This document shows positions 15,166 to 18,851 of a stretch of DNA of 64,000 nt, one piece after another (the stretch's first letter is position 1; each line of letters starts with the position of its first letter). The DNA comes from an uncultured Acidobacteriota bacterium (GTDB lineage Bacteria; Acidobacteriota; Blastocatellia; RBC074). The DNA lies in the NCBI GenBank assembly GCA_963699175.1, contig OY969418.1:7730689-7794688 (forward strand). Reading direction: 5' to 3'. The notes under the pieces are model-generated. The model was not told where the DNA came from. It worked only from the letters and a program-made list of their open reading frames with translations, and made no database searches. The translations under genes were made by a program, and so were the position numbers.

Positions 15166-16317
15166 TCAATCTTTAGTACCGCTGCGAATCAGCTCAAACT
15201 CATCTGTAATGATCGGTTGTGGTTTAATGACCGTCTGTTCGACTTGCAGATCACGCCAATGGCGCAGACCGACCAGCAGCAATGCCATCATCGGCACGCT
15301 CAAAAAAATGCCCGTGATGCCGCCTAACTCGGCGCCACACAAGACTGCCAGAATCACCAGCACCGGATGCATTTCAATACTCCGGCCAATCAGACGTGGG
15401 TAGATGACGTAATCATAAATCAGCCGCAGCAGCACGATAAAAACGATCACCGCCACCATACTAGTCACCGAATGAAAGCTGGCAACCAGCGCGGCAATCA
15501 CGCCTAAAGCCGCTGGCCCGACTACCGGAATAAATTCGAGCAATCCCGCCGTCACACCCAGCACCAGCGAATATGAAACCCCTAGCAGTCGCAACCCCGT
15601 GCCAACCACTACCCCGATCAAAAGGCATGCCAACAATTGCGTGCGTATGTAAGCCGCCAGCGTCTCGCTCACGTCTTGCAAGAAATCGGCCACGCGCACG
15701 CGCATGTCAGCTTTGGGCAACGAGGCCAGAAACCGCTGGCGCAGGCTGCGGCCGTCTTTCAAAAAGAAGAAGCCGATGACCGGAATCAAAATGAGCCAGT
15801 GTGAATAGAAACTCAACTCGACCGTGCGCCAGGCAAGTGATTGCAACCAGCCCCACACACCAGCCACAGCCGTATTGAGCCATTCGGTGGATTCTTGTTG
15901 CCAGCGCGCAGGCAAACGATAACGCGCGGGCAGACTAGTCACCATTCTGGAATATTTGTCGAGTTGTTTGGCGTATTCGGGCGCGTTGCCGATGAAGGAA
16001 CTGATCTGATCAGACAGCAGTGGGGCGAGCCAATCCACGGCCATAAAGCCGCAGTAGAAAATCAGCGTATAAACTCCGATGATCGCCAGCGCGCGCGGCG
16101 CACGCCAGGTGACGACCCACAACCGGCGCGGCCCACTCAGCAAGTCCACCAACGGCGAGATCAGGTAACAGAACAAGACCGTGAAGATGAGTAGCAGGAT
16201 GATCTTGCGCAGCGCATAGAGCAGCCACAGCAAGATCGCAGCACCGATTACAACCAGGATGATTTGCAGCACGCGGCTGCGCAATTCGGCTGGCCTAGTT
16301 TGATGGTCAACAGGCAT
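15166..16317 (-). CDS. AI-2E family transporter (PerM/UPF0118)
   Basis: Multi-TM protein with the typical C-terminal IPVVGPA...LSVP pattern. I moved the start to the ATG at 16317 because the listed N-terminal extension runs through the REP stub and into the IS110 CDS. Confidence 0.8.
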   Translation of the reverse strand: MPVDHQTRPAELRSRVLQIILVVIGAAILLWLLYALRKIILLLIFTVLFCYLISPLVDLLSGPRRLWVVTWRAPRALAIIGVYTLIFYCGFMAVDWLAPLLSDQISSFIGNAPEYAKQLDKYSRMVTSLPARYRLPARWQQESTEWLNTAVAGVWGWLQSLAWRTVELSFYSHWLILIPVIGFFFLKDGRSLRQRFLASLPKADMRVRVADFLQDVSETLAAYIRTQLLACLLIGVVVGTGLRLLGVSYSLVLGVTAGLLEFIPVVGPAALGVIAALVASFHSVTSMVAVIVFIVLLRLIYDYVIYPRLIGRSIEMHPVLVILAVLCGAELGGITGIFLSVPMMALLLVGLRHWRDLQVEQTVIKPQPIITDEFELIRSGTKD

Positions 16318-16366
16318 TGGTGAAGAAGCGGTGCAGTACTGGGAGCGGTAGATACCGTGTTGCTTG

Positions 16367-17347
16367 TCAAGCGGCAACTGCATAATTTGGATCGTAGGCC
16401 CGCTGCTTCTTCAACACGCCATAAGCGAGTCGCACCAGTTTATGCATAGCCGCCACGATAATTTGCATCTTCTTCTTGCCGCGCGCTGTGAGGCGTGCCG
16501 CCAGCTCTTTGAACTCTTTGCTTGAACGTAAGGCCGCCAGCGCGGGCAGGTAGAGCGCGTAGCGCACGCGCGGGTTGCCAATCTTCGAGAGCCGTCCGGG
16601 CGCGTTGAGCGAAGTCCCGGATTGCTGCCGCTGCGGCGTCAACCCCGTGTAGGCCGCCGCCGCCCGCGCTGAGTCGAACTCAGCCAGTTGTGGCATCTCG
16701 GCCAGCAGGCGCGCCGCTGTCTCCGGCCCGATGCCAGGGATCGAATCCAGTAACGCGCGTTGCTGCTTGAGCGTGGGATGCTCGTCGAAGTGCTGATTGA
16801 GTTGCCGCTTGATCTCGGCGATTTGCGCCTCGAGCGTCTCAACTACTTTCTCCCAAGACGCGCGTACGGCCTGCGTCAGCCGCCCGTCGGTCAGCCGGTT
16901 GCTGACTTGCGTGCGCTGCTCGATCAGGTCATCGAGATGCCGCACGAGCGCTTGCAGTTCCTGCTGTGCCGGCGGCAAGGGCGTCCAGGCCGCCGGGTTG
17001 TAGCGCCAGCCGAAGCGCGCGATCAAGACAGCATCGGCCCGGTCGGTTTTGTTGCGTTGCAGTTCGCTTCGGCCAAAGGCTTTGATTTGCGCCGGATTGA
17101 TAATACTGACCGTGTGCCCGGCGGCGTGCAGGTAGGCGGCCAGCGCGTCGCCATAAGCGCCGGTTGCTTCCAGCACGGCGTGGACTTGCGGCACACCTTG
17201 TTGGGTGAGCCAGGCCTGCAAAGCTTGAAAGCCGGCGGGCGTGTTGGCGCACTGCCGTTGTTTCGGCTTGCCTGCTTCCGGGTCGCGCAGCAAAGCTACG
17301 TCAAAGGTCTTTTTGCTAATATCAATTCCGAGTTTGGGCAGTGTCAT
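16367..17347 (-). CDS. IS110-family (DEDD) transposase/recombinase
   Basis: MTLPKLGIDISKKTFDVAL, EATGAYG, and the C-terminal Transposase_20-like IPGIGPETAARLLAEM. The ATG at 17347 is preferred over the listed upstream start. Confidence 0.9.
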   Translation of the reverse strand: MTLPKLGIDISKKTFDVALLRDPEAGKPKQRQCANTPAGFQALQAWLTQQGVPQVHAVLEATGAYGDALAAYLHAAGHTVSIINPAQIKAFGRSELQRNKTDRADAVLIARFGWRYNPAAWTPLPPAQQELQALVRHLDDLIEQRTQVSNRLTDGRLTQAVRASWEKVVETLEAQIAEIKRQLNQHFDEHPTLKQQRALLDSIPGIGPETAARLLAEMPQLAEFDSARAAAAYTGLTPQRQQSGTSLNAPGRLSKIGNPRVRYALYLPALAALRSSKEFKELAARLTARGKKKMQIIVAAMHKLVRLAYGVLKKQRAYDPNYAVAA

Positions 17348-17604
17348 GGTTAAGCTCCGGTTGAAGTCCAGCAACGCCAGGCACAAACTTACTGAGCGCG
17401 GTCTTGCCAATGCAGGCTGCTGCGCGTAGGCAGCGCCTTGAGATACCGTTCGGGCTTGAGCAGTAAGTTAAACGGTGGCAGCCTGAATCTACCGCACAGG
17501 CTCTAGGGCGAAGCGACTTGTCAGGTTGCTGCCACCGCTGTCCCAGGCGTCCCTGGGTATGTGCGCGCTACTTTGAGGTGGCGCGTACATAAACTCAACA
17601 TACA
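17348..17604 (-). ncRNA. Candidate bridge (guide) RNA region in the 5' non-coding arm of the IS110 element
   Basis: Its position matches where IS110-group elements encode their bridge RNA. It contains AGATACCGT (17441-17449), identical to the junction at 16350-16358. It also contains ATCTACCGC (17487-17495), the reverse complement of the junction at 16345-16353. No structure was computed. Confidence 0.4.
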
Positions 17605-17687
17605 AGCGACCGGGTTAGCCGCCGATTTGAGCGATTGGCCATCAAGCCAACCCGGTCGCTACCGCTCCCAGTACTGCAGCAGGTTTT

Positions 17688-18851
17688 TTACACTTTCCTA
17701 AATAGCGCCCCCGCAATGGTCAAGCCCGGTCCAAACGCCAAACTGGCGACCAGCGTGCCAGCCTTGATCATATCTGTTTCCAAAACACGCGCCCAAACGT
17801 GCGGCAAGGTCGCCGACGACATATTGCCGCGTTCGTACAACAGCGCGCGACTCACCGCGGTCTGTTCCCCGTTCAGTTCCAGGAGCGCCTGTACCGCATC
17901 AATGATGCGCGGCCCGCCAGGATGCACGGCAAACAAAGTCTGGGCGCGCTCAGCTTCATAATTTTCGCCCGCCTGCGCAAATATCCGCGCGAGAAATCCG
18001 GGCAGTTCCGCCGCAATCTTCTCTGGCACTTCGCGCGCCAGCGTCATCCTGAAGCCCCACTCCGACAACTCCCAAGTCATGTCGGCCAACGAATCCGGCA
18101 CGATCTCTTCACGCACGGCCAGCACTTCAAACGCCGGTTGTGCAATTTCGGCTTCAACCTCACACAACGTCAACGCGTAACGGATGTGGCCATCGGCGAA
18201 GAGGCTCTGCACCACGAGTTGTTCAGGCCGGTGATCGCGCGGGTTGAAATGGAGCGTGCACAACTCGGTATGCACGATCTCGGCGCGTGGCGGCCCGCCG
18301 TTTTGCGGATTGAGCAGTAGCCCTTTGGCCACGCGCAGCGCCGGCACGGCGGCATAACAACCCATGTGATAAATCTGCGTCGCGCGCGTTTGCGTGTGCC
18401 AACCTTTGGCCGCCAGCAGCCGCTGAATCGCGCTGGGCGAAGCGTAGCCGGTGCAGGTGACGTGCAGCAGATCGCTGGGTGCGTCCGTTTCGCCGACAAA
18501 AAAATCCTGCAAGGCGCGGTGGGCTGTCTCGGCAAAGAATTGACTGCGTACTGCCAGGCTGTGTCCCTCCGGGTTTTCGTGCAGATTGAAAATCTGCATG
18601 CGCGACCAATCCTGATGCAGGAAGTCTTCCAGTTCGGAATATCGCCGCCCGATGCTCGATGGCGCGCAGCCATAACGCCGTACCAGTCTGGACATACGCG
18701 ACACGAACTCCGCCTGCGGTTCGGCTTGTCCATTGGCGGTCGCTTCGGCACGCGAGTGCGCGGCGGTCAACCAGTCAGAGACATACTCCTGTGCGCCGTG
18801 ATAACGCGGCAGGATGATATTGAAATTGCTTAGCACCGTTCGTTGTTTCAT
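17688..18851 (-). CDS. Type III polyketide synthase (chalcone/stilbene synthase superfamily)
   Basis: The catalytic triad contexts are HVTCTGYASPS (Cys), FAVHPGGPRII (His) and GNMSSATLPHV (Asn), plus the C-terminal FGPGLT. 387 aa. Confidence 0.85.
   Translation of the reverse strand: MKQRTVLSNFNIILPRYHGAQEYVSDWLTAAHSRAEATANGQAEPQAEFVSRMSRLVRRYGCAPSSIGRRYSELEDFLHQDWSRMQIFNLHENPEGHSLAVRSQFFAETAHRALQDFFVGETDAPSDLLHVTCTGYASPSAIQRLLAAKGWHTQTRATQIYHMGCYAAVPALRVAKGLLLNPQNGGPPRAEIVHTELCTLHFNPRDHRPEQLVVQSLFADGHIRYALTLCEVEAEIAQPAFEVLAVREEIVPDSLADMTWELSEWGFRMTLAREVPEKIAAELPGFLARIFAQAGENYEAERAQTLFAVHPGGPRIIDAVQALLELNGEQTAVSRALLYERGNMSSATLPHVWARVLETDMIKAGTLVASLAFGPGLTIAGALFRKV

Follow-up and report, generated by a model that had tools for sequence, protein, structure and literature searches.

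A REP hairpin in the 64,000-nt stretch of Blastocatellia DNA analyzed here (the window) is interrupted by an element that, in our judgment with high confidence, is a structurally intact insertion sequence (IS) of the IS110 group, namely an IS621-type bridge recombinase element whose guide RNA is aimed at the REP hairpin of its host. This reading is based on the anatomy of the element, protein homology, a covarying RNA fold, the matching of guides to flanks, and a junction motif. The strongest evidence is the covariation of the guides with DNA that lies outside the element. The element is a clear example of the RNA-guided recombinase type described in 2024, not a new kind of system. A first-pass annotation had proposed that this copy carries a bridge RNA programmed for the host's own REP-A family, and for the predicted RNA this is supported by the fold, the guide matches and the flank covariation.

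The element, its insertion site and its recombinase

The body of the element covers positions 16352-17604 on the minus strand (1253 nt) and lies between two CT cores within one arm of the REP hairpin. Its limits were set by reconstruction of the empty site and by alignment to two relatives, L003 and L004. Excising the element in silico rebuilds the REP arm exactly. The distal piece of the split arm (right target, RT; 16333-16351, minus strand), which ends in the core CT, joins 17607-17615, and the body limits follow because the joined flanks are, base for base, the reverse complement of the arm left intact at 17650-17677. On the other side of the element, 17605-17615 (minus strand) comprises the second CT (17605-17606) and the proximal part of the interrupted arm (left target, LT), next to the hairpin loop (17616-17649) and the intact arm (17650-17677). 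Read on the minus strand, the layout is ..ACCCGGTCG-CT-element-CT-ACCGCTCCCAGTACTGC. An empty site has one copy of the core, an occupied site two. On the plus strand the core reads AG and stands at both junctions (16350-16351, 17605-17606), and the intact arm has it a single time.

The ends show the traits of the IS110 group, with the core dinucleotide CT at both ends and a long left end (LE) compared with a short right end (RE). LE is a non-coding arm of 257 nt (17348-17604, minus strand) that encodes the predicted bridge RNA, and RE is 15 nt (16352-16366, minus strand), the last 7 nt of which form, together with CT, the left donor (LD) that is matched by the guide LDG. No terminal inverted repeats were found at the element ends, just a 5-nt subterminal CAACA/TGTTG. 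The anatomy described in the first-pass annotation, i.e., an intact 28-nt right REP-A arm, a left arm split exactly with AG at both junctions, no terminal inverted repeats, and arms of 257 nt upstream and 15 nt downstream of the gene, is thereby confirmed. The intact arm (17650-17677, plus strand) also holds an identical free target, ACCCGGTCG-CT-ACCGC, in inverted orientation 45 bp from the element and with its core CT at 17659-17660.

The insertion is flanked by a gene for an AI-2E family transporter on one side and by a type III polyketide synthase-like gene (17688-18851) on the other. Since the neighbouring genes are all on the minus strand, upstream read-through could feed the element. 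A 405-aa ORF at 15166-16383 (minus strand) starts inside the IS (ATG at 16383) and runs through the REP arm; the true start of the transporter (Pfam PF01594) is most likely the ATG at 16317, which gives a protein of 383 aa.

The gene within the element (16367-17347, minus strand; ATG at 17347, stop at 16367) encodes a recombinase of 326 aa with a DEDD RuvC-like domain and a Tnp domain, and is preceded by a GGAG ribosome-binding site 7 nt upstream of the ATG (17355-17358, minus strand). The protein contains the Pfam domains PF01548 (DEDD_Tnp_IS110) and PF02371 (Transposase_20), and scores 255.8 bits against the NCBIfam equivalog NF033542 "IS110 family RNA-guided transposase", for which the cut-off is 140. 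Its PDB matches, ISCro4 (E 3.6e-65) and IS621 (E 1.5e-62), are both solved bridge recombinases. Residues D9, E60, D102, D105 and S243 align to the identical residues D11, E60, D102, D105 and S241 of IS621 (5 of 5 kept), for which catalytic roles have been described (PMC11208158). Residues 131-281 also gave a sub-threshold NCBIfam match to "TIGR-Tas system RNA-guided endonuclease" (42.3 bits, cut-off 100).

In IS621, a junction promoter is reconstituted by the joining of RE and LE (PMC11208160). Here, a TTGACA -35 box in RE (16365-16370, minus strand) overlaps the stop codon, and nearly all relatives have the same box with the same spacing. The -10 box of the predicted circle-junction promoter is TATGTT (17597-17602, minus strand). 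When RE and LE are joined in silico they give TTGACA-N17-TATGTT, a 17-nt spacing that exists solely in the circular junction, and the junction motif TTGAC-N17-TAT..T is kept among relatives. In the integrated state the flank supplies just TCGGCG at the place of the -35 box. A weak terminator-like hairpin, GGCGGCU-AACCC-GGUCGCU (17605-17623, minus strand; 7 pairs, 3 of them G-U), is made up of the REP loop, the left target and the core, and is followed by the U-rich start of LE.

If the mechanism of IS621 applies, the element would excise as a circle in which the joining of RE and LE would create a sigma-70 promoter, and the 5' arm would be transcribed to a bridge RNA of about 205 nt. The first internal loop of this RNA would read the target in the arm of a host REP-A repeat, and the second loop would read the element's own RE-CT-LE junction. 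A tetramer of the DEDD/Ser recombinase would then exchange strands at the CT core, and the element would end up precisely at this CT, with nothing but the core duplicated. Transcription, RNA-protein binding and current activity are here only inferred. In the covered parts of soil-metagenome contigs, no joints were seen for either the empty site or the circle junction.

The predicted bridge RNA, its guides and the flanks they match

The relatives L003 (80% protein identity) and L004 (66%) come from Blastocatellia metagenome-assembled genomes and align with the element over the whole LE. RNAalifold predicts a pair of stem-loops at the 5' end and, after them, two long ones that open into large internal loops, and 15 pairs are compensatory on both sides among three sequences, i.e., this element, L003 and L004. 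All parts of the fold are read on the minus strand. The 5' stem-loops, SL1 (17558-17591) and SL2 (17542-17557), cover 17542-17591 and show compensatory changes in the three sequences. The target-binding loop (TBL) module at 17472-17538 has an outer helix (17528-17538/17472-17482) and a second helix (17522-17524/17483-17485), and the donor-binding loop (DBL) module at 17386-17469 has an outer helix (17461-17469/17386-17394) and an inner stem-loop (17415-17437).

From the two large stem-loops we derived a covariance model of 159 positions. It matched over its full length, immediately before the start of the recombinase gene, in 59 of the 62 sources searched, the window included. In the resulting alignment, 88.1% of the cells are paired compared with 60.6% in shuffles and 34-47% in slid controls, and both sides change in 29 of 31 pairs, figures that lean somewhat towards the structure because the alignment was fitted to the model. 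The strong covariation in relatives supports the existence of a bridge-RNA-like fold, as the first-pass annotation had suggested. In a genuine IS621 copy from E. coli, found through a protein search of plasmids, the model also matches the LE, weakly but in register (16.8 bits, E 4.5e-4). Two observations on the fold count against our reading. In the 3-bp upper stem of the TBL, whose conservation among relatives (91.7% paired) itself speaks for the fold, the middle pair is C-C in this element. Additionally, an Rfam 15 scan of 16000-18000 with E up to 10 detected no bridge-RNA family. A MIR164 match in the same Rfam scan range was dismissed as chance.

According to the rules described for IS621, LTG and LDG read in the sense of the top strand from the left side through the core, RTG and RDG read antisense to the stretch from the core rightwards, and two handshake bases follow each right guide (PMC11208160; PMC11208158). 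In the TBL of this element, LTG CAAGUCGCU (17512-17520, minus strand) has the same sense as the left target plus core and matches the occupied site CCGGTCG-CT at 7 of 9 positions. The two mismatches are distal and count against our reading. LTG matches the commonest REP variant at 8 of 9 positions, and the flank of L004, which carries the same LTG, at 9 of 9. RTG GCGGUAG (17489-17495, minus strand) is antisense to CT+ACCGC at 7 of 7 positions, and the TBL handshake guide AU (17487-17488, minus strand) can pair with AT, the final two bases of RE, which is also the arrangement in IS621. In the DBL, LDG ACGGUAUCU (17441-17449, minus strand) is identical to the RE end plus core (9 of 9), and RDG CAU-UGG-CAAG (17403-17412, minus strand) shows discontiguous pairing with CTTG-T-ATG at the LE start, in which a 3-nt bulge separates the pairing of CAAG with CTTG from that of CAU with ATG, the pattern known from IS621. 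The DBL handshake position (17401-17402, minus strand) is AC. All four guides are found in internal loops adjoining covarying helices. An LTG-RTG helix that appears in the single-sequence MFE fold was rejected as not conserved (33.3% paired vs. 32.7% in shuffles).

The first-pass annotation had drawn attention to three junction-matching segments in the long arm, which we find as described and which can now be assigned. The segment 17441-17449 is identical to the junction at 16350-16358, and this 9-mer (AGATACCGT) is LDG. The segment 17487-17495 is the reverse complement of 16345-16353, and this 9-mer (ATCTACCGC) is RTG (7 nt) plus the 2-nt handshake guide. The 7-mer AAGCGAC at 17511-17517 equals 17604-17610 and is the core end of LTG plus one base. 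When mapped onto the fold, the two 9-mers and the 7-mer fall in internal loops, outside the conserved helices.

The guides change together with the DNA next to the element in several relatives. L003/L086 and two more copies from another genome (L090 and L096) occupy different copies of a REP variant with arms ..CGCTCG-CT-ACCGC, and combine an LTG ..CGCUCGCU with the left flank CGCTCG-CT. The element from genome G220 combines LTG AAUUCGCU with the left flank AATTCG-CT and RTG CGUAGUAG with the right flank CT-ACTACG; as its ends lie on different contigs, both flanks are assigned to one element by inference. Among 38 distinct guide-flank pairs from relatives, LTG matches its flank on average at 5.53 of the seven non-core positions compared with 2.93 after permutation, and the observed score was exceeded in 0 of 10000 permutations. 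Automatic RTG matching was noisy in distant relatives, with many matches of 4-6 of 7 positions, consistent with an RTG of 4 nt, and in some of these relatives the right-end boundaries may be wrong. RTG covariation was therefore taken from the close clade. Other copies and relatives thus sit at the same CT in REP-like arms, with target loops that change with the flanks, as expected from the first-pass annotation.

In the G220 element (L095 400-600, L088), an apparent inverted repeat is formed by CACGTAGT, which precedes the left flank, and ACTACGTG, which is part of the right flank. Since this target also appears to lie in an inverted repeat, palindromic targets may be general in the clade, even across repeat families.

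Target sites, handshake and mobility

The host genome is a single contig of 9.54 Mb with 56% G+C, and the closest relatives of the element, which are from Blastocatellia, place it in Acidobacteriota. The full 14-nt cognate target occurs once in it, the CAGG variant with one LTG mismatch 31 times, and the CCGG variant with two mismatches, which is the occupied type, 24 times. The 11-mer GTCGCTACCGC is found 67 times compared with 7.9 expected. The prediction that REP-A copies are further targets stands in part. The other copies in the window (18893, 18941 and 35990) have core-adjacent mismatches (ATCGC, ACTGC, or A before CT) and are therefore poorer predicted targets, and the better sites are located elsewhere in the genome. 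Recognisable relatives of the element are present in 10 of 401 genomes of the class, the host included, and none of them is near-identical. The same element body, with no listed differences, was found on a soil-metagenome contig, where it sits in another REP copy with the CAGG variant as left target, between REP arms with a different loop and different outer flanks. A 30-nt flank of this IS-bearing contig (X1) is absent from the host genome, and the contig thus represents a second insertion context, probably in another strain.

The host genome also carries a second IS110-family element (L084; C1:2305875-2309819, minus strand) with a recombinase of 319 aa and 49% identity, and a match to the bridge-RNA covariance model at 2619-2475. 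Its RE ends in ..GACAGTAT-CT, and its RTG AAUUUAC is compared with a flank CT-AAATT, with C where the core-binding G is expected. The match to its LTG (CCCACGG) lies in a small hairpin, and 9 extra bases, AGGGTATCT, stand between this match and LE. These bases look like an RE end plus core, and may be a remnant of an earlier event.

Two findings on the element at 16352-17604 bear on whether it still moves, and both count against our reading. This element is single-copy in the host genome despite dozens of near-cognate sites, and its DBL handshake AC cannot pair with the target ..CG, while its A could pair with donor T7. The TBL handshake AU does pair with donor AT. In IS621, the equivalent donor-loop change (G166A) strongly reduced recombination (PMC11208158). 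These findings might be explained if the element were a genuine bridge-RNA IS by descent that is now immobile or nearly so, as the handshake base would lock the complex before strand exchange. The resemblance of the handshake to the IS621 G166A mutant favors this explanation, as do the single copy next to 1 perfect, 31 one-mismatch and 24 two-mismatch targets, the unoccupied identical target 45 bp away, and the integrated copy that has TCGGCG from the flank instead of a -35 box. However, IS110 elements usually have low copy numbers, the ORF is intact with all catalytic residues kept, and an identical body is found in a different flank in the soil metagenome. The AC handshake is also carried by four natural relatives (L003, L004, L008 and the G220 element, L095), and since these occupy different sites, AC is compatible with transposition. 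We therefore consider an immobile element unlikely, and keep the reading of an intact bridge recombinase element.

The AC handshake is found in every relative with a left target ending in CG, and GU in nearly all others, most of which combine it with targets ending in C. As AC faces a target ending in CG in each of them, the Blastocatellia clade formed by this element, L003, L004 and the G220 element might use another handshake rule than IS621, although we regard this as a speculative idea with a low probability. If true, the AC handshake, the extra 5' stem-loop and the weakened TBL upper stem could together indicate a natural variant in which the control of directionality or efficiency is altered.

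The junction-matching segments could also be protein-binding subterminal repeats or leftovers of end duplication with no role as an RNA guide, in line with the view of IS110 ends held before 2024. We find this highly improbable. The segments are in loops framed by compensatory helices, which DNA-binding sites do not need, those on the target side change in step with the host DNA that flanks the element, and the layout fits the experimentally proven RNA of IS621.

Matches by chance were assessed with 20000 dinucleotide-preserving shuffles of the LE arm. A lone 6-mer or 7-mer is common by chance (LTG matches of at least 6 in 1225 of 20000 shuffles, RTG matches of at least 7 in 492), but the 9-mers are rare (2 of 20000 for the donor 9-mer and 10 of 20000 for the junction 9-mer) and all three core-anchored matches together were never obtained (0 of 20000). 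With the same pattern recurring in relatives and the result of the flank permutation test, coincidence of the arm-junction matches is refuted and has a next to negligible probability.

Significance and comparison with known systems

The element offers a clear case from nature, in a soil phylum that has received little study, of a predicted bridge RNA tuned to the host's own REP family, and in close relatives both halves of the TBL appear reprogrammed in step with different host repeats. It leaves the known mechanism unchanged. For annotation, the 405-aa ORF call can be recognized as an insertion artefact, the element ends and the RNA can be marked, and REP copies can be ranked as landing sites. 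The compact, divergent pair of recombinase and RNA, with its 7-nt RTG, can also be added to the catalogue of programmable recombinases.

The closest known system is IS621 of Escherichia coli and its bridge RNA (PMC11208160, Durrant et al., 2024; PMC11208158, Hiraizumi et al., 2024). The recombinases are homologs (E 1.5e-62; tblastn identity about 41%) with the same five catalytic residues, and in both elements the core is CT, the target is a REP and a non-coding LE precedes the gene. The RNAs share the order of 5' stem-loop, TBL and DBL, the polarity of the guides and the TBL handshake AU. The donor ends are nearly the same (..GTAT-CT-TGTAT..), RDG is discontiguous in both (..AU-N3-CAAG), and the junction promoter of IS621 has a counterpart in the predicted promoter motif of our element. 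In contrast to IS621, the host belongs to the phylum Acidobacteriota, class Blastocatellia, and the REP family and target differ (..GTCG-CT-ACCGC compared with ATCAGGC-CT-AC). RTG is 7 nt here and 4 nt in IS621, and the DBL handshake is AC instead of GU. There is also an extra second 5' stem-loop, which accounts for a predicted RNA of about 205 nt compared with 177 nt in IS621. At DNA level no similarity was detectable, as blastn with the element as query gave no match in any complete E. coli genome.

ISPpu10 from Pseudomonas putida, also an IS110 element, has a bridge RNA and inserts almost exclusively in convergent pairs of REP sequences, and its target-derived hairpin is reported to be a post-integration junction terminator (bioRxiv 10.64898/2026.03.19.712850). 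This hairpin, located by the LE start with its U-rich tract, resembles the weak hairpin at 17623-17605. However, ISPpu10 is without a 5' stem-loop, whereas the element described here has two. ISCro4 from Citrobacter rodentium (PDB 9t56) is the best solved-structure match to the recombinase (E 3.6e-65) in a comparison that covered the protein, and unlike our element it is enterobacterial. The seekRNA elements of the IS1111 group, which belong to the IS110 family, share the recombinase superfamily and the RNA-guided logic. However, their ncRNA is located downstream of the gene, in RE, and they have subterminal inverted repeats, whereas in the element from Blastocatellia RE measures just 15 nt and the RNA fold precedes the gene.
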